Source of the DNA: a virus
Taxonomy: Duplodnaviria > Heunggongvirae > Uroviricota > Caudoviricetes
IMG/VR virus record: IMGVR_UViG_2537562231_000027
DNA: 16,219 bases
Reading direction: 5' to 3' (one strand)
The notes under the pieces are model-generated. The model was not told the origin of the DNA. It saw only the letters and a list, made by a program, of their open reading frames with translations, and did not search any database. Made by a program: the position numbers and the translations under genes. Every line of letters begins with the position of its first letter. The first letter of the stretch is position 1. Of this stretch, positions 2,887 to 9,146 are shown one piece after another.

Positions 2887-3144
2887 TCACGCAGTAAACT
2901 CCTTCACCAGTATTTCAAACTGGCTTACCTGTCCTTCCAGTTCCGCCACGCAATCCACCAGCTCATCCACCGCCTTTTGTGTGCGGTGTTTTGCCTGCAG
3001 CAGATCACGAAGCGCCGGAGTAAGCTGCTTGCGGAGCGTATCTTTTTTCACGCTCGTTTTTTCCATCTGTTCAGCACAACGAAGCATCTCCTGCGCCTGC
3101 CGACGAAGTTGTTCCGGTGAAACAGTGGTTGTTCTGTTGTTCAA
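2887..3144 (-). CDS. Hypothetical coiled-coil protein (85 aa), TTG start
   Basis: TTG start overlaps the DnaB-like stop (TTGA); GGAG about 10 nt upstream. Product is charged and helical-looking (QLRRQAQEMLRCAEQMEK...). Confidence 0.4.
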   Translation of the reverse strand: MNNRTTTVSPEQLRRQAQEMLRCAEQMEKTSVKKDTLRKQLTPALRDLLQAKHRTQKAVDELVDCVAELEGQVSQFEILVKEFTA

Positions 3145-4541
3145 AATAAACGCTCCGTTTTACTACCCGACATGCGGTTATTGCTGTATCTGCGCGGATT
3201 GCCCGGCGTCATGGGAGTGGAAAGAACCCGGGCACTCTCCTGGTCCACAGGCAGAAAATGCCCGTTATGAAAACGCCGGTAAATGGTACCCAGCGTACCA
3301 TTACGCTGTTTCGTGATGTTGATTTCTGCTATGCCTCTCGCCTGTGTCTCCGGGTTGTACACCTCATCCCTGTAAAGCATCAGAATGATGTCTGCATCCG
3401 CCTCTATTTCCCCTGAGTTTTTCAGGTCCGAGTTCATGGGGCGTTTATTGGGTCTGGATTCCACACCGCGGGAGAGCTGGCTCAGAGCAATCAGCGGAAA
3501 ACCGCCGGATTTTGCCAGGCTTTTTAGTCCCTTTGAGATTTCCCCCACAGCAAGGTCGTGACGCCCCATGCTGCGGGTTTTAATCAGGCCGAGGTAATCG
3601 ACCACCACCAGCGCCGTTTCCGGGTGTTTCATCCGGTGGTGCCTCGTAGTTGCACATATCTCATCAATGGTCAGGTTTGCCTGGTCCACCATCCAGATAT
3701 TACGCCCCGTCATTCGTCCCACGCCCTGTGAGAAACGTGCCCAGTCTTCGTCTTCAAAACGGGCAACTGACTTAAGACGGGATACCGGCATTCCCCCGGC
3801 AGCAGACACCATACGTTCACCAATCTGAATGTTCGCCATCTCCATGGTGAACAGAAGCACGCCATGCCCCTGCTCAGTCACCTTGTCGATGATATCCAGC
3901 GCAAGTTCGGTTTTCCCCATCGAAGGACGAGCCGCAATGAATACCAGGTCGCCTGGCTCCATACCGCCCGTTTTTGCGTCCAGCTCATCAATACCGGTCA
4001 TCAGCGCCCTGGATTTCTCCAGTCCCTGATTGCGGCATTCAACACGGTCGACCACTTCTGGAAGGACATCATCAATGTGAACCGGCTGAATGACGCCCTT
4101 TCCGGTCGACAGTGAGGCCATCATGTTCTGCGCATCCTTCAGGGCATCCTCGGCTGCTTCACAGGTATACGCATCACGTAAATTCTGTAATGCTTCAGTC
4201 AGTGTTTTTTCTGCATCGCGCAGTACGGCATTACGCCGCAACGCTGCGACATAGTGCTCCAGTGAAGACTTCACCCAGGTTTTGCGTCCGGTGTCGGTAA
4301 TCACCGGGGCAAGTTCCGGCATCTCATTGCACAGCAGTACGGGGTCAATGACGCCGGATACACGGGCCTGTCTGCAAATTCCCGCGTAAATATCCCTGTA
4401 CTGACGCACGAAAAAGACATCCGCCGGAAGCGTGGCCAGAATATCCATCACTTCCGGATCAGCCCCACGCAGAAAAAACGCACCGATGACAGCTCCTTCC
4501 AGGTCATCATTACGCCACGCCGGATTTGTCGGGTTTGTCAT
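3141..4541 (-). CDS. Replicative DNA helicase, DnaB family (phage-encoded)
   Basis: Walker A ARPSMGKTELALD and DnaB-like C-terminal RecA fold motifs. ATG at 4541 has SD GAGGTG and overlaps the DnaC-like stop (ATGA); the track start at 4580 is a TTG. Confidence 0.9.
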   Translation of the reverse strand: MTNPTNPAWRNDDLEGAVIGAFFLRGADPEVMDILATLPADVFFVRQYRDIYAGICRQARVSGVIDPVLLCNEMPELAPVITDTGRKTWVKSSLEHYVAALRRNAVLRDAEKTLTEALQNLRDAYTCEAAEDALKDAQNMMASLSTGKGVIQPVHIDDVLPEVVDRVECRNQGLEKSRALMTGIDELDAKTGGMEPGDLVFIAARPSMGKTELALDIIDKVTEQGHGVLLFTMEMANIQIGERMVSAAGGMPVSRLKSVARFEDEDWARFSQGVGRMTGRNIWMVDQANLTIDEICATTRHHRMKHPETALVVVDYLGLIKTRSMGRHDLAVGEISKGLKSLAKSGGFPLIALSQLSRGVESRPNKRPMNSDLKNSGEIEADADIILMLYRDEVYNPETQARGIAEINITKQRNGTLGTIYRRFHNGHFLPVDQESARVLSTPMTPGNPRRYSNNRMSGSKTERLF

Positions 4542-5428
4542 GCTGCCACACCTCTGATATGCGCGCGGTAGCTTTCCCAACCAAACACCAGGCAGTTACG
4601 CCCACCATCAGTAACGCGATCCACAATCCGTTCACCAATGGATTCCTTAAGCTGTTCAAACGTCAGGTTGCTGATCAAAATTGTCGGTAAAACGCTTTCG
4701 TAACGCGCATTTATGATTTCCTGCAGGATGGTTATCTCCGCAGGCGTACCGAACTGCACACCAACCTCATCGATGATAAGCAGATCCAGCGATGCAAAAT
4801 GATTAATCACTTCATCGTCAGTGCGCTCAGAGTTGTGGCGCCAGGTATTTTTCACCGCACGGGTAAGCCGCATTACATCCGTGATTTCTATGGTTGCCTG
4901 GTGGTGGCGAATAATATTTTTTGCCATTGATACAGCCAGGTGATTTTTACCGGTACCACAATTGCCAATCATGACCATGCTGGTGCCTGCAGCGAGACAT
5001 TTCTTCCAGGAAGCGGCATAGCGCTGACAGGCTTCAAGGTTTTTCTGTGCGTCAGTATTCACCGCCTGATAATTCTCAAACTCACAGTCCTGGAACCGGC
5101 GGGCAATACCGGCCTGATCGAGTAATTCACGAACCTTCAGGGCGCGTAATTCGTCATACACGCGGCCCAGCTCCTCACTGAGGCAGGACAGGCAACCGGA
5201 CACCCGTTTGACAGCTTTCCCCCTTACATCCGGGCCAGTCAGCACATAGCGCGTGTATTTTCCGTGTTTCCCGCAGGACACCGTCTCAGTGCTTTGCACC
5301 CAATGCTCACAGCGCCACGGACGCTTTCCGCCACGGACAAATGCCAGCTCCTCTTCCAGGTCTGCCTTGCGGTTAAGTAACTGCGCTTTGTCGTGTTGCA
5401 TGTGTTGTTTGTTCAGGAAATTAGTCAT
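4538..5428 (-). CDS. DnaC/IstB-like AAA+ helicase loader
   Basis: Walker A GNCGTGKNHLA and Walker B LLIIDEVG. ATG at 5428 is preceded by GGGGAGGGTGAAA; the track ORF extends further upstream without an RBS. Confidence 0.85.
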   Translation of the reverse strand: MTNFLNKQHMQHDKAQLLNRKADLEEELAFVRGGKRPWRCEHWVQSTETVSCGKHGKYTRYVLTGPDVRGKAVKRVSGCLSCLSEELGRVYDELRALKVRELLDQAGIARRFQDCEFENYQAVNTDAQKNLEACQRYAASWKKCLAAGTSMVMIGNCGTGKNHLAVSMAKNIIRHHQATIEITDVMRLTRAVKNTWRHNSERTDDEVINHFASLDLLIIDEVGVQFGTPAEITILQEIINARYESVLPTILISNLTFEQLKESIGERIVDRVTDGGRNCLVFGWESYRAHIRGVAA

Positions 5429-5447
5429 TTTCACCCTCCCCACAAAA

Positions 5448-6341
5448 TCACCAGTTGAAGTTCGTTGAGCCGTAGTCCTGTTCACTGAATCCCGAGATCG
5501 GGAGGCTTTTGCCCCGCCCACCTCCGGGGGCTGCTGGCTGTTGCCAGGATTCCTCGAAATGACGATCGGGTCCAAAGAACGTCGACGCCTGCTTCACGAA
5601 CTGGGTACCGGTATTTCCAGAGACACGCACCCAGGCGGCATACCGCTTCACGCCATCAAGCATGTTCTCCGGTTTTATTCCCTCCCTGATACGTGCTTTC
5701 CAGGCTTTGAAGGCTGCTGACTTGGAATTGCCACCAGCACGTTTGGGATATTCCTGCCATGCCTGTTCAAATTCCGGTGAATATTCCTGTCGGGCAGAAC
5801 GCGCTGGTGCAGACGCGTCAGCGGATGCGCCAATAGTGTTTTTACTCTCTGTAGTACTCTCTGAAGTAATCTCTGTTGTATTCTCTGTAAGATCGAAATT
5901 GGTTTTCCCTTCACCGCGGCGAGGGGTTTCCCGTGTCCGCGGTGAAGGCTTTCCCTCCTCCGCGAAATTGGGTTTTACAGTTTCCCGAAAACGGGTTTCC
6001 CCATTTCGGGAAAACTGATTGTTTTCATTGATAATTTCATTAAGGCGCTCACAATCTATACGGTAGAACATTTTGTGCTCAAGACGCTTGTTGGTTTCAA
6101 CCAAAATGCCTCTGGACACAAGATGCTTACGCGCTACAGCCTGTTGTTCAAATGTAAGTCCGGTTTCGTGTTGTATCTCTTCACGCGTTTTATGTACGCC
6201 TTCCGCTGCATGTGCTTTATCCTGCCAGTAAAAAATCTGACCAAAGAAAATAACAGCGTGCGGACTTCCCATGTATTTAACGAGCCCAGGGTAATAAGCA
6301 ACCGGATGCCCAAAATCGAGCAGAAGATCAGACGGACGCAT
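5448..6341 (-). CDS. Phage replication initiator (O-like replisome organizer) with internal origin repeats
   Basis: ATG at 6341 preceded by GGGAGGTG. Central T/E/S-rich linker is encoded by tandem DNA repeats. Lies immediately upstream of the DnaC-like and DnaB-like genes. Confidence 0.75.
   Translation of the reverse strand: MRPSDLLLDFGHPVAYYPGLVKYMGSPHAVIFFGQIFYWQDKAHAAEGVHKTREEIQHETGLTFEQQAVARKHLVSRGILVETNKRLEHKMFYRIDCERLNEIINENNQFSRNGETRFRETVKPNFAEEGKPSPRTRETPRRGEGKTNFDLTENTTEITSESTTESKNTIGASADASAPARSARQEYSPEFEQAWQEYPKRAGGNSKSAAFKAWKARIREGIKPENMLDGVKRYAAWVRVSGNTGTQFVKQASTFFGPDRHFEESWQQPAAPGGGRGKSLPISGFSEQDYGSTNFNW
5842..6060. repeat. Candidate replication origin inside the initiator gene: four 12-bp tandem repeats, five TTTCCC-core iteron-like repeats, adjacent AT-rich tract
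   Basis: 12-bp repeats GTAnTCTCTGnn at 5842-5889. TTTCCC cores at 5904, 5927, 5950, 5981 and 5997 (first three 23 bp apart), with a local palindrome CCCGAAAACGGG. AT-rich tract at 6020-6060. Confidence 0.5.
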
Positions 6342-6561
6342 AGCCACCTCCCAGGCGTTTAAACATTTTTCCGGACTGAAACGCCACTAGTGGGTAACTG
6401 ATGGTGTAGTTACGCCCCAGTAATTCACACACAACTTTCTGGCTTTCGGTGCTGACCAGGCAAACCCGCAGAACGCGACCGTCGCTGGTGGCGAACCACT
6501 GCCCCACACGGGGGCAACGGTTGTGTCGGTGATACAGAGAATTAACGAGGCGGCGAATCAT
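6328..6561 (-). CDS. Hypothetical protein (77 aa)
   Basis: ATG at 6561 with SD GGGAGGTG 6 nt upstream; ATGA overlap with the upstream gene's stop; 3' end overlaps the initiator start by 14 nt. Confidence 0.55.
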   Translation of the reverse strand: MIRRLVNSLYHRHNRCPRVGQWFATSDGRVLRVCLVSTESQKVVCELLGRNYTISYPLVAFQSGKMFKRLGGGYASV

Positions 6562-6920
6562 GGGCGCACCTCCCATTGATTACAGCGGAAAGCTGTATGA
6601 TTCAGGCTGGTTTCAGCTTCATGGAATGCCTCAATGCAGCTCTCGTAGTACCGCATTGTGCGCAGACTTAACCCAAGCTGAAGCATCATCAGGCCATCAA
6701 GAGTGATGTAATAACCACGCAGGGAGTCACCGTAGATGTGATAAGTACCCGGTATGAAATTGCAGGTAAAAAACTCGCGTGAGCAGTTCAGATACTCGAT
6801 TTTGTCAACGATGTTCTGGTGCATTCGCTTAAAGTGGCAGGCAACATGCAGGGAGAAAATAACGGCCTTGCCGTTGACAACTTCAATTTTCAGGTATGGG
6901 GAAGTTGGGACAGTAGCCAT
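6558..6920 (-). CDS. Hypothetical protein (120 aa), Cys/His-containing
   Basis: Internal ATG at 6920 with SD GGAGG 8 nt upstream; product MATVPTSPYLKIEVVNGKAVIFSLHVACHFKRMHQNIVDKIEYLNCS... The track ORF extends to an ATG at 7220 through GC-rich, low-complexity sequence with no RBS. Confidence 0.5.
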   Translation of the reverse strand: MATVPTSPYLKIEVVNGKAVIFSLHVACHFKRMHQNIVDKIEYLNCSREFFTCNFIPGTYHIYGDSLRGYYITLDGLMMLQLGLSLRTMRYYESCIEAFHEAETSLNHTAFRCNQWEVRP

Positions 6921-7085
6921 GATGGCAGCCTCCGTTGACTGTGGAAAACTTCCACCACCGGAGCTGCGAAACTCACTGGTGGCAGACTGAACAGGGTTCG
7001 CAGTACCGGCGTCAACGGAGACCGGCGAGCCTTTCGGCTCCCCTGCCCAGCCCACCATAATTCTGGCGTGCGTGAGCGCGGACGA

Positions 7086-7106
7086 TAAAAAAGACGCTGG
7101 CGCGTC
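7086..7106 (-). terminator. Candidate intrinsic terminator in the early-right operon (tR1-like)
   Basis: Minus-strand RNA reads GACGC-GCCA-GCGTC followed by TTTTTTAT. Short 5-bp GC stem. Confidence 0.4.
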
Positions 7107-7304
7107 ATATATCGCCGTTGACAATTCCGGGCTGCGACCCCCGGCACCCGCTTTATAAGGTGCGGAGACAGTGTAACGTCCCGAAATTGCAGAATCAATA
7201 TTTGGTCTTGAAATGATCATATAGCTGCTGATATCTTTAGAACTGTTCTTGGATGTTTCGGAGCCGTTTTATGCGAAACAGCTCCCCGTTATTGATGTTG
7301 AGTG

Positions 7305-7329
7305 AGCCGGGTTACTCCCGGCTTTTTTT
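7305..7329 (+). terminator. Rho-independent terminator on plus strand, antisense to the early-right operon
   Basis: AGCCGGG-TTACT-CCCGGCT followed by TTTTTTT; the T-run ends at the Rha-like stop codon. No U-tract on the minus strand, so it is unidirectional. Confidence 0.55.
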
Positions 7330-8036
7330 CACCGCTGCCAACCAATAACCTGAAATAACCCCATTTTCGGGTGATACCAGCGAGTCCCTCGCGGTTCTGC
7401 TTCCTCCATAACCCGATAAAAAGCAGCCATAAACGGTTCCACAGCAACAATTGCGCGACGTGACAACAATCCGTCCGGCGTCATGAACTCATGGGTGTCT
7501 GTAGGAATCTGATAGGCGTTCACCAGATTGCGGCATTTATCATCTGACAAACCGGTTTTTGCTTTCAGTTGGCGATATCCGGCATAGCCCTCACGAATAG
7601 TGCCCTTTTTAATTTGCTCGACTGTTTCAGCAACGTGGCTGACTTTTTCTTCCACCTGAGTGATCCGTTTCTGCTGACGAACTGCTTCAAGAGCCATCGC
7701 GGCAACCATTTCGATTTCGCTCATTGGCTTACGGATCTGTTCTTCCAGTTCGCGCCAGCGATCTACCAGGCGAGCAGTGAATTCAGGACAGAGCTGTGCG
7801 ACGACAATGATGCTGTCGCGCTTACCTCGTTCACCTTCGAATACATACGCGCTAGAAAATCGGCGAGGCCCAAGTGATTGTTTATTCTCAATTTCCACAG
7901 TCTGTGGAAATTGGATGATTCCCTTTTTAGCCAGTGTTTCAATAGTTCTCTTAACACTATCTGGTCGGCTTCCCACCAGCTCTGCGATCTCAACGCTGGT
8001 CATGGATGCTTTGCCGTTAAAAATTGCGGTGTTCAT
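7329..8036 (-). CDS. Phage regulatory protein, Rha family
   Basis: N-terminus MTSVEIAELVGSRPDSVKRTIETLAKKG...RLVDRWRELEEQ resembles the Phage_pRha signature. SD AGGAG 7 nt upstream; ATG overlaps the Cro-like stop (ATGA). Confidence 0.8.
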   Translation of the reverse strand: MNTAIFNGKASMTSVEIAELVGSRPDSVKRTIETLAKKGIIQFPQTVEIENKQSLGPRRFSSAYVFEGERGKRDSIIVVAQLCPEFTARLVDRWRELEEQIRKPMSEIEMVAAMALEAVRQQKRITQVEEKVSHVAETVEQIKKGTIREGYAGYRQLKAKTGLSDDKCRNLVNAYQIPTDTHEFMTPDGLLSRRAIVAVEPFMAAFYRVMEEAEPRGTRWYHPKMGLFQVIGWQR

Positions 8037-8323
8037 TGTTTATCTCCTGCGTGTATTCCATCCGCTCTGTGTGGTGAACTTGGATTTAGGCTTTTGCGTA
8101 ACAAGTTAGGAATTCCATCTTCAGGGTGAGGATAAAGATCTGGCCTTAAGCCATGAGGCGTAACCTTCCATGCAACTACTTCACATACTCGTAAAACGAA
8201 ACGAGCAGGAATTGTGCTTTTTGAAAACCACTGATTCACCGCTTGCGGCGTCACACCAAGATTTCGCGCTATGGCATTTTGCGCAATTAATGCACGAAGT
8301 TTGTCGTAATCATTTCCTTCCAT
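8033..8323 (-). CDS. Cro-like HTH regulator (YdaS-type)
   Basis: LIAQNAIARNLGVTPQAVNQWF...LRPDLYP is HTH-like. Divergent from the cI-like gene across a 133-bp regulatory region. Confidence 0.7.
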   Translation of the reverse strand: MEGNDYDKLRALIAQNAIARNLGVTPQAVNQWFSKSTIPARFVLRVCEVVAWKVTPHGLRPDLYPHPEDGIPNLLRKSLNPSSPHRADGIHAGDKQ

Positions 8324-8456
8324 AACAAAGCACCAATATTAACTTTATAAATCAAGAATACATCAAGTTTAAATTAACATGCAAGTTGCAAAAGGATCGA
8401 ATACACTAAAATCAAGTAAAGATTTATCCTTGTAAAGAAACCCACAGGATTTGGTC
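8324..8456. promoter_or_regulatory. Divergent immunity control region (OR-like) between cro-like and cI-like genes
   Basis: AT-rich. Contains three direct ATCAAG motifs, the palindrome TGCAAGTTGCA and the near-palindrome CAAGTAAAGATTTATCCTTG. Individual promoters not confidently resolved. Confidence 0.5.
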
Positions 8457-9146
8457 ATGAAGAACGTCAAAAACACGGAAAATCGAATAGCCGCGATGCT
8501 GAAAGCAAAAGGATGGACTCAGGCTCAACTGGCCCGCAAGTTAGGTGTGAGTGCGCAATCAGTGCAGTACTGGACAACAGGAAAAACATTTCCACGGAGT
8601 GATAAGCTCGCGCATTTATCAGAGATTAGCGGTTATCCACAATCCTGGTTCTTAGGTGAAGACTCCTCACCAACCTTTTCTTCGCAAGAGAAACACCAGA
8701 CAAGAACAGATAGCGTCGTATTTAATGTCCTTGATGTTGAGTTTAGTTGCGGTGATGGAACTCATGTCCGTGGTGACTTGATAGATGTAGTGCGCTCAAT
8801 AGAACTTGATCCTGAATATGCCCGACGTCTTGTTGGAAATCGGGCATTCAAAAATATAGAAATAGGTAACGCCAGAGGAGACAGTATGGCTCCCACAATC
8901 TCACCTGGCGACCTTCTTTTTCTTGATAAGACAGTAACTTATTTTGATGGCGATGGTATTTATGCATTTTGTTTTGATGGAGAATGCTACGTGAAAAGGC
9001 TTCAAAAAATTGGAAGCAAAATCATGGTGTTATCTGATAACCCCAATTATCAACCATGGAGCATCGAAAAAGAGGGGTTAGCTCTGCTTTATATCCAGTC
9101 TAAAGTGATCTCATCAGTACCATTCAACATAAACAGATTTGGTTAG
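8457..9146 (+). CDS. Prophage repressor, cI/LexA-like (N-terminal HTH, C-terminal S24 peptidase)
   Basis: HTH WTQAQLARKLGVSAQSVQYW; S24 motifs GDSMAPTISPGDLLFLDK and YVKRLQK (Ser/Lys dyad). ATG at 8457; the track start at 8451 is a TTG. Confidence 0.85.
   Translation: MKNVKNTENRIAAMLKAKGWTQAQLARKLGVSAQSVQYWTTGKTFPRSDKLAHLSEISGYPQSWFLGEDSSPTFSSQEKHQTRTDSVVFNVLDVEFSCGDGTHVRGDLIDVVRSIELDPEYARRLVGNRAFKNIEIGNARGDSMAPTISPGDLLFLDKTVTYFDGDGIYAFCFDGECYVKRLQKIGSKIMVLSDNPNYQPWSIEKEGLALLYIQSKVISSVPFNINRFG

Follow-up and report, generated by a model that had tools for sequence, protein, structure and literature searches.

A candidate replication origin embedded in the initiator gene of an Eru7-type Escherichia coli prophage: phased iterons and a conserved 12-mer tandem

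The DNA considered here, IMG/VR virus record IMGVR_UViG_2537562231_000027, is a stretch of 16,219 nucleotides, hereafter the window, and represents the early region of a lambdoid Escherichia coli prophage. Its minus strand carries an initiator gene of 297 amino acids (5448-6341; ATG at 6341, stop codon at 5448-5450), whose product comprises a winged-helix-like N-terminal domain, a disordered linker and a small helical C-terminal domain. The linker-coding part of this gene harbors an array of direct repeats that probably constitutes the replication origin of this Eru7-type prophage, embedded in the gene of its own initiator; we put the likelihood of this reading at about 70%. It is based on the phasing of the repeats, on their constraint at the DNA level, on their co-variation with the N-terminal domain, on a layout shared with phages lambda and P22, and on the linkage of the C-terminal domain to genes for a DnaC-like loader and a DnaB-like helicase. 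A preliminary description of the same DNA had proposed an iteron-type origin inside the initiator gene, as in lambda O. The core of that proposal is borne out by comparative and codon-level evidence, while two of its parts, the order of the AT-rich tract and the reading of a 12-bp tandem as linker, have to be revised.

The initiator would be made from an early rightward-type operon comprising cro, Rha genes, initiator, loader and helicase. Its winged-helix N-terminal domain would bind five iterons phased by 23 bp (GGGAAAnCC…CG, some with the dyad GAAA-N5-TTTC) together with an inverted copy. With these sites lying about two helical turns apart, a wrapped nucleoprotein complex resembling the lambda O-some could form and destabilise an adjacent tract of low stability. 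The conserved C-terminal domain would then recruit the phage DnaC-like loader and DnaB-like helicase onto the opened DNA. Binding, unwinding, the tract that opens and the protein that recognises the 12-mer are elements that we infer.

The iteron array and its flanks

The array is formed by five 23-bp units in exact register (5887-6001, minus strand) sharing the core GGGAAAnCC…CG. The units start on the coding strand at 6001, 5978, 5955, 5932 and 5909 (units 1 to 5), with the column consensus GGGAAAcCCnttttCGcGg, and their 16-bp cores begin on the plus strand at 5894, 5917, 5940, 5963 and 5986. The five TTTCCC cores of the preliminary description are present on the plus strand at 5904, 5927, 5950, 5981 and 5996, besides an inverted copy (GGGAAA at 6008). 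The 23-bp phasing, which had been attributed to the first three of them, exists but extends to five units in register. The unit starting at 5978 (coding unit 2, the fourth in plus-strand order) possesses a degenerate core, GTAAAA, and an additional GGGAAA is found inside the array at 5981-5986. The whole window contains 20 TTTCCC/GGGAAA matches, a number reached in none of 200 shuffles (9.8 +/- 3.0 expected for the whole 16 kb), and six of the 20 fall within 110 bp. Tandem Repeats Finder (TRF) reports a 23-bp period with 2.7 copies at 5904-5964, and the lag-23 autocorrelation of the iteron stretch is the highest of 3221 segments of 115 bp in the 16 kb. When the whole window is scanned for the 16-bp unit with at most two mismatches, all matches lie within 5894-6001. 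To note, the DnaC-like gene downstream contains three more GGGAAA hexamers on the minus strand, two near its 5' end (5216-5221 and 5267-5272) and one near its 3' end (4573-4578), none of which matches the extended iteron unit.

The inverted iteron copy, ATTTCGGGAAAACTG (6003-6017, plus strand), forms an imperfect dyad with unit 1; the sequence of this dyad is unchanged in the orthologues L105, L106 and L109. Imperfect dyads were measured at 5978-5995/6000-6017 (18 nt, 78%) and 5908-5926/5930-5948 (19 nt, 84%). The GAAA-N5-TTTC dyad is held by units 1 and 5 and approximated by unit 2, and units 3 and 4 jointly form a 19-nt imperfect inverted repeat. The element CCCGAAAACGGG (5984-5995), previously described as a local palindrome, is not self-complementary, its reverse complement being CCCGTTTTCGGG; two arms of 4 bp flank its central AAAA, and it is part of more extended imperfect dyads. 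A single GATC is found in the origin region, at 5891. No DnaA box lies within the initiator gene, and the sole one-mismatch match in the scanned interval 5300-6700 is located upstream of the gene, at 6421-6429. Promoter-like and terminator-like sites exhibit no enrichment, the latter in comparison with shuffles.

Four in-frame tandem 12-mers with the consensus nCAGAGAnTACn lie directly downstream of the array (5841-5888, minus strand) and form a candidate unwinding or single-strand-recognition element. The successive units are ACAGAGAATACA (5888-5877), ACAGAGATTACT (5876-5865), TCAGAGAGTACT (5864-5853) and ACAGAGAGTAAA (5852-5841); TRF finds 3.9 copies of a 12-bp period at 5843-5889, and the tract is purine-rich on the coding strand. 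The array encodes residues ~114-151 of the initiator and the 12-mers residues 152-167, both within the predicted disordered linker (110-184). The downstream flank (5840-5899) has a GC content of 0.33-0.35 and reaches the 98th percentile of the least stable 41-mers in the window. On the other side, an upstream AT-rich tract (6018-6060, GC 0.30-0.33) encodes the last helix of the N-terminal domain (…RLNEIINENNQ); GC is 0.30 at 6020-6059 and 0.30-0.33 at 6000-6059, at the 97th percentile of the least stable 41-mers. The array centre, in between, is among the most stable duplex of the window. The AT-rich tract noticed earlier at 6020-6060 is thus real, with its GC content of 0.30, and it was taken to lie upstream of the iterons, contrary to lambda. 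This contrast does not hold, since a second and equally unstable tract follows the array directly (5841-5900), is more consistent family-wide and restores the order found in lambda and P22.

For the family-wide view, the fetched loci that carry the shared C-domain motif were dereplicated into 33 N-region types. In 28-29 of these 33 loci, GC content is lowest between -120 and -90 nt relative to the C-domain motif, corresponding to 5840-5870 in the window. Upstream of the arrays, the flank shows a mild AT-richness across the family (-0.039, p=0.004). Flanks were also compared with each locus anchored on its own array; as this test picked the 12-mer tandem itself when periods were left free, it was limited to arrays of 18-30-bp period.

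The 12-mer tandem across phages

A set of 160 related loci was fetched by protein similarity, a procedure blind to the 12-mer tract. They contain 195 copies of the core CAGAGAnTAC on the coding strand and a single one on the opposite strand, against about 3.4 expected per strand; 148 of the 195 stand at most 260 nt after the N-terminal domain. The hosts concerned are Enterobacteria, Pseudomonas, Stutzerimonas, Vibrio, Vreelandella, Acinetobacter, Aeromonas, Burkholderia and Nostoc. The 12-mer is also present in metagenome-assembled genomes (MAGs) labelled Microbacterium, Blastocatellia and Thermodesulfovibrio, whose N-terminal domains are just 30-45% identical to that of the window; MAGs with the 12-mer are assigned to Actinobacteria, Acidobacteria and Nitrospirota. 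The number of copies differs between relatives, with five in L103 and L107, four in the window and about three in L105, L106 and L109.

The positions that vary within the 12-mer are the first of codon 1 (T/A/S/P), the second of codon 3 (N/I/T/S) and the third of codon 4, and the wobble positions of codons 1 to 3 are invariant. The codon ACA is retained in high-GC hosts where it represents 0-13% of the threonine codons of the same open reading frame (ORF). Because this variability does not follow codon degeneracy, the conservation is not of the type expected for a peptide. The four 12-bp repeats pointed out in the preliminary description are present as described, and their interpretation as mere coding sequence of a T/E/S-rich linker has to be abandoned, since nCAGAGAnTACn is a DNA motif conserved across phyla.

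A scan of a viral collection with two adjacent 12-mers alone (18 specified bases) yielded at least 120 stretches. Seventy-four of the 76 distinct ones are in the same codon phase, inside an ORF of 250-490 amino acids. Among the matches listed, 65 of these ORFs match a hidden Markov model of the N-terminal domain; the best upstream array has a period of 23 bp in 49 and of 21-24 bp in all 65 scored, and the iteron sequences differ widely. With iterons this diverse in loci recovered by the 12-mer, the latter is the more conserved of the two elements. Within E. coli, the ~40-bp 12-mer tract (5855-5894) has a match of at least 95% in 1416 of 5426 complete genomes, including BL21, and the full N-domain-plus-iteron type occurs in 101 of the 5426. 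The matches to the tract sit within other genes annotated as 'hypothetical protein' or 'replication protein O'. In the searchable literature, the motif strings are not mentioned in connection with phages or origins, which does not prove that they are unpublished. A look-alike occurs in L187 (IMGVR GVMAG-M-3300023179-150, labelled as a giant-virus MAG), where tandems of ACAGAGATTACA at 765-786 differ in codon phase and form part of a longer 'ACAATAGAGATTAC' tandem with a 21-bp period, and where no match to the N-terminal domain is found; this repeat is probably unrelated and matches the pattern by chance of composition.

The strict conservation of the 12-mer suggests sequence-specific recognition, perhaps as single-stranded DNA. 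We tentatively propose that the tandem, which comprises 2-4 copies and starts a few bases beyond the last iteron, could be a site of unwinding or single-strand recognition specific in both sequence and strand, and not a generic AT-rich tract. This proposal is appreciably less secure than the assignment of the origin itself. The reader could be the winged-helix initiator family or a conserved partner, and the closest parallels would be the DnaA-trios and the Rep-bound 13-mers of DNA unwinding elements (DUEs).

Concerning the tract that opens, the downstream 12-mer tandem (5841-5888) is modestly favored over the upstream tract (6018-6060) because of the corresponding position in lambda and P22, of the family-wide GC minimum found there, and of a sequence conservation demanding a DNA-level role. 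An alternative that we regard as unlikely retains the iterons as initiator-binding sites and as the origin and places the unwinding at 6018-6060; the 12-mer would then be the site of a host or phage factor binding double-stranded DNA, a spacer or a recombination joint. The two tracts do not differ in stability, and the upstream one abuts the inverted iteron and has its DNA conserved in L105 and L106; it also encodes a structured helix of the N-terminal domain, which offers an explanation of its composition at the protein level. The significant AT-richness of the flanks upstream of the arrays speaks for this alternative family-wide, yet the deepest and most consistent GC dip is downstream, as is the AT-rich unwinding tract of both lambda and P22. 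A role as a recombination joint would fit the mosaic breakpoint adjoining the 12-mers (see below), although the extreme conservation of the 12-mer still calls for a function at the DNA level.

Domain exchange and constraint on the repeats

Throughout the family, direct repeats cluster in the interval from 90 to 240 nt before the C-domain motif (27-30 of the 33 loci). Among 35 loci tested for arrays of 18-30-bp period, 29 score above an internal null, and a period of 21-24 bp is the usual one. Each unrelated N-type possesses its own array, of 15-24-bp period, at the same junction: five copies of a 21-bp unit in L008 (TGGTGCAGCAGTTTCACCACA), four copies of 21-24 bp in L115, four of 23 bp in L113 (TGTGGAAACCCCGCAAAC), and 15-bp units in L116 and L150, with a copy number varying from 3 to 5. 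In other initiator families, a different short tandem takes the place of the 12-mer, namely three copies of GAAYCAGTCAAA in L115 and L008 and a 24-bp pair in L116. In the enterobacterial loci the DnaC-like and DnaB-like pair invariably comes next after the C-terminal domain, irrespective of the N-type. Locus L116 is an example, its loader and helicase being 99% and 98% identical to those of the window, with a different N-terminal domain and different repeats. A mosaic breakpoint is located at 5835, from which the DNA is 100% identical toward the 3' end of the gene among initiators with unrelated N-terminal domains and iterons. This pattern implies that specificity (N-terminal domain and iterons) and helicase delivery (C-terminal domain, loader and helicase) are swapped independently, each as a cassette of its own.

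The iteron sequence co-varies with the DNA-binding domain. The GAAA-N5-TTTC motif, of which about none is expected, is found at the junction in most homologues of the N-terminal domain down to 61% identity, including every Burkholderia locus, with the exception of L106 (82%), and is absent from those more distant. Homologues with 30-45% identity, from Aeromonas, Acinetobacter, Serratia and a Thermodesulfovibrio MAG, exhibit the exact 23-bp period and a GGAAA(A/C)C core, with different dyads. A separate observation concerns the viral contigs L110 and L111, in which the ORF holding the iterons and the C-terminal domain begins only at '…KQSVSRNGETRF' and an N-terminal domain 99-100% identical is still encoded upstream. 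This suggests an initiator split by a frameshift or a stop codon, and both may be pseudogenes.

The repeats could also bind the initiator for control purposes, such as autoregulation, titration, handcuffing or incompatibility, the true origin being elsewhere in the phage. Plasmid iteron arrays do act in copy control as well, and no direct origin mapping was found for the family in the searchable literature. This explanation is nevertheless improbable, as the 16-kb window contains no other cluster of iteron units, the arrays are always flanked by DNA of low stability, and they are embedded beside loader and helicase genes in all N-types. The layout is, in addition, that of the experimentally defined lambda origin and of the P22 origin annotated by similarity to it.

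The remaining alternatives place the function of the repeats in the protein or in the messenger. The repeats are not peptide-level: 23 is not divisible by three, so that successive units change frame, and GGGAAA falls in all three codon phases (1, 1, 2, 1 and 0 across the five units). The five units are kept in place in the orthologues with the same N-terminal domain, L105 and L106 (75% and 73% amino-acid identity) and L109 (59%). Compared with these three, linker codons 107-169 display an amino-acid identity of 0.59-0.66, against 0.66-0.80 in the folded domains, and an identity at third positions of 0.72-0.78, against 0.40-0.52 (Fisher p 2e-5 to 1.4e-3). This inverted profile indicates that the repeats are constrained as DNA rather than as peptide. 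A slippage-born tandem or low-complexity sequence of a flexible linker, without any cis-acting role of the DNA, would fit the disorder predicted for the encoded region, the 12-bp period (a multiple of three), the variable copy number of the 12-mer and the in-frame deletions of the E. coli variants P0003 and P0004. It is hardly credible in view of the frame-shifting period, of wobble positions conserved above those of the folded domains while the amino acids are less so, and of a 12-mer in which the encoded residues vary, CAGAGA·TAC stays fixed and the rare ACA codon is kept in high-GC hosts. As for the two variants (277 and 267 amino acids, ~97-98% identical elsewhere), their deletions, at ~5960-6050, span one or two iteron units together with the inverted copy and the AT-rich tract upstream; crippled origins in decaying prophages, or deletions between repeats, may be the explanation.

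Equally remote is a role of the dyads as hairpins affecting translation, stability or termination in the initiator message: the minus-strand RNA of 5880-6025 has a folding energy of -60.2 kcal/mol (z = -5.3 relative to shuffles) and a terminator-like hairpin is scored at 5996-6013, though on the opposite strand, but any array of protein-binding sites with dyad symmetry should fold strongly, terminator-like sites are no commoner than in shuffles, covariation is lacking (term -0.06), and the 12-bp hairpin of the window is reduced to a 4-bp CGCG core in orthologues in which the direct repeats persist. The RNA-structure reading was consequently rejected, the strong fold being accompanied neither by covariation nor by conservation of the long hairpin.

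Several points weigh against the assignment of the origin and of its parts. Within the array, units 3 and 4 are devoid of GAAA-N5-TTTC and the core of unit 2 is degenerate. Both flanks are equally unstable in the window (97-98th percentile), and with each locus anchored on its own 18-30-bp array both are AT-rich, with a difference that is not significant (p=0.23). Eighteen of 58 distinct loci with the N-terminal domain lack the exact 12-mer motif within 260 nt; in some of them it occurs as a variant or at a greater distance downstream. Coding for a T/E-rich peptide is a confounder of both the AT-richness and the purine bias of the 12-mer tract, as is its in-frame coding nature of its strand specificity. 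Fold searches give weak backing to the domain assignments, and the parallel of the initiator with lambda O, P22 gp18 and Rac YdaU is architectural only. Finally, no experimental binding, unwinding or autonomous replication of any family member was found in the searchable literature.

The replication module and its relation to known systems

The initiator matches phrog_270 'replication initiation protein' (1e-62), and the label 'O-like' comes from PHROG only. Neither Pfam nor NCBIfam returns a family for the whole protein or its separate domains with E values up to 10, and a PDB sequence search with a profile of the initiator family gives no match. In the AlphaFold2 (AF2) model, the N-terminal domain covers residues 1-109, the predicted local distance difference test (pLDDT) score is below 50 at 110-184, and helices follow at 189-266. 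The N-terminal domain (6015-6341, minus strand), winged-helix-like with the pattern H-E-H-H-E-E in the model, is the presumed reader of the iterons. Foldseek matches it weakly to MarR/ArsR-type winged helices and to RepA_N plasmid initiators (E 0.01-0.1), and gives generic winged-helix matches only for the full model (best E 0.01). The RepA_N initiators 5kbj, 4pt7 and 4pql are among these weak matches (E ~0.1). Iterons of RepA_N plasmids are likewise located inside the rep gene, and the likeness of the N-terminal domain to RepA_N could result from convergence or from very remote kinship. Homologues of this domain occur in phages BcepIL02, DC1 and Aaphi23, as well as in Acinetobacter and Vibrio phages. 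The C-terminal helical domain (residues 185-262, …YPKRAGGN…; 5556-5789, minus strand) is common to initiators with many different N-terminal domains and presumably recruits the helicase or its loader; fold searches provide weak DnaD-like hints only.

Sequence comparison with known initiators is negative. Against lambda O there is no Pfam match (Phage_rep_O) and the hhalign probability is 0.3%, so that the earlier label 'O-like' is apt as an analogy and has to be dropped as a statement of homology. P22 gp18 gives a BLASTP E value of 0.066 over 94 residues, which is not significant, and Rac YdaU one of 0.57, without a DUF1376 match to the initiator. The initiator thus belongs to an unclassified family without detectable homology to the known origin initiators compared.

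The initiator gene lies in a minus-strand operon opposed by a plus-strand cI-like repressor gene (8451-9146). From its proximal end, the operon comprises a cro-like gene (8033-8323), a Rha-family gene (7329-8036, Phage_pRha match), a second Rha-family gene with an Ash domain (6558-7220, Phage_ASH match), a small phrog_1153 gene (6328-6576), the initiator, the loader and the helicase; a DUF968/HNH gene is also part of it. The two Rha-family genes, sited between cro and the initiator, are those used to define the Eru7 type and probably encode regulators, not replication proteins. The cI-cro intergenic region (8336-8440) is the least stable DNA of the window (41-mers of -40.6 and -44.0 kcal/mol) and presumably is the operator and promoter region; it contains no alternative iteron cluster. 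The DnaC-like AAA+ helicase loader (296 amino acids, 4538-5428, minus strand) matches IstB_IS21 (6.8e-16) and phrog_50 (5e-80), as well as the DnaC family NF005931 (3.7e-44, under the curated cut-off). A mechanical ORF list starts this gene at a TTG at 5575 (4538-5575), creating a 128-nt overlap with the 3' end of the initiator gene. The annotated ATG at 5428, which agrees with the annotation of LC567835, is the likely start and leaves a 19-nt gap after the initiator. The DnaB-like replicative helicase (466 amino acids, 3141-4541, minus strand) matches DnaB_C (5.2e-74) and the DnaB N-terminal domain (1.1e-5), and its ATG overlaps the loader stop codon (4538-4541). The pairing of the initiator with DnaC-like and DnaB-like genes, as first described, is thereby confirmed.

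The module is that of Eru7-type Shiga toxin (Stx) phages. The initiator gene is 99.9% identical to that of the 'phage replication protein O' of prophage PPyecE_EH1910 (LC567835), 97.2% to that of the Eru7 representative Stx2_14040 (LC567818) and 96-97% to genes of about 20 Stx1/Stx2-converting phages. The cI-proximal region is 83% identical to that of LC567818 over 92%, with 83-88% across related Stx phages, and Rha and Ash/Rha genes stand beside cI in Eru7 as in the window. Eru types are defined solely by two genes beside cI, and the proteins of Eru phage replication are stated to be unknown (PMC8951638); the initiator/loader/helicase module and its origin are not described in that paper. A description of an origin for the initiator family of the window, for Eru phages or for the Bcep22-like Burkholderia phages BcepIL02 and DC1, which possess homologues of both initiator domains, was not found in the searchable literature, which does not prove that none has been published.

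The presence of this module gives the origin a medical interest, as Stx production depends on phage replication. The candidate origin of ~220 bp and its set of three proteins are open to the plasmid assays already used for lambda-type Stx phages (PMC7466680). The family offers many natural versions of origin specificity and helicase delivery, swapped as cassettes at a joint inside one gene. If the 12-mer is indeed a cis element, it would provide a compact DNA signature for the origins of a large group of temperate phages from many phyla, including 26% of complete E. coli genomes, and a new model of sequence-specific origin opening. An undescribed and very large class of phage origins would then be recognisable from DNA alone, by its association of an N-terminal domain of variable specificity, 23-bp iterons and an invariant 12-mer tandem. 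The example of wobble positions constrained by a function other than coding also bears on codon-based selection analyses, recoding and synthetic-genome work.

Lambda provides the closest architectural parallel. As in the window, the lambda origin occupies a central position in the initiator gene, flanked by the parts encoding a DNA-binding N-terminal domain and a recruiting C-terminal domain, and belongs to an early operon downstream of cro. With the same tools, lambda exhibits four dyad-containing iterons spaced by 20, 24 and 23 bp and then a downstream tract of GC 0.225; six iterons are found in the Stx phages 933W and P27. In lambda-type Stx phages, the origin is likewise located mid-O, and synonymous mutations of the iterons abolish plasmid replication (PMC7466680). 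Gene 18 of P22 contains a rep_origin annotated on the basis of similarity to lambda; its four repeats, at spacings of 20, 24 and 23 bp, precede two copies of an AT-rich 14-bp tandem, ACAAAAGACAATAT, which differs from the 12-mer of the window. The comparison with lambda and P22 called for by the preliminary description shows a common layout, with direct repeats about two helical turns apart and then an AT-rich tract. The window differs by its five units in a strictly constant register (23/23/23/23) and by a tandem of a strongly conserved 12-mer where lambda has an A-rich tract.

The helicase is also delivered differently. Whereas lambda P hijacks the host DnaB, the window encodes both a DnaC-like loader and a DnaB-like helicase. 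P22 possesses a phage helicase next after gene 18 (gene 12, the product of which is 39.8% identical to that of the window) but no DnaC-like loader gene. The order initiator (5448-6341), loader (4538-5428) and helicase (3141-4541), all on the minus strand, is that of the initiator-loader-helicase (ILH) modules, a recognised gene-order type (Weigel & Seitz 2006, cited in PMC9144972). This classification concerns gene order, and the source consulted gives no origin, iterons or 12-mer for the initiator family of the window. The Rac prophage of E. coli K-12 (L164), in which a DUF1376 initiator-like gene, ydaU, precedes the DnaC-like ydaV, carries four copies of AAGCAGATGTTCAA at 2472-2563, spaced by 33, 33 and 12 bp, compatible with an embedded origin of another type.

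Outside phages, iteron plasmids of the RepA_N type hold their iterons in the central, linker-coding part of the rep gene, where they are read by a winged-helix N-terminal domain. The fold likeness of their initiators to that of the window is weak, and no sequence homology is apparent. Short tandems of unwinding elements recognised as single-stranded DNA exist in the form of DnaA-trios and of the 13-mers of DUEs, one strand of which is bound by Rep, and the 12-nt period and the motif of the window differ from both the 3-nt DnaA-trios and the 13-mers. An iteron origin embedded in its initiator gene is of a known kind, and the 12-mer tandem shared across phyla is the new feature.

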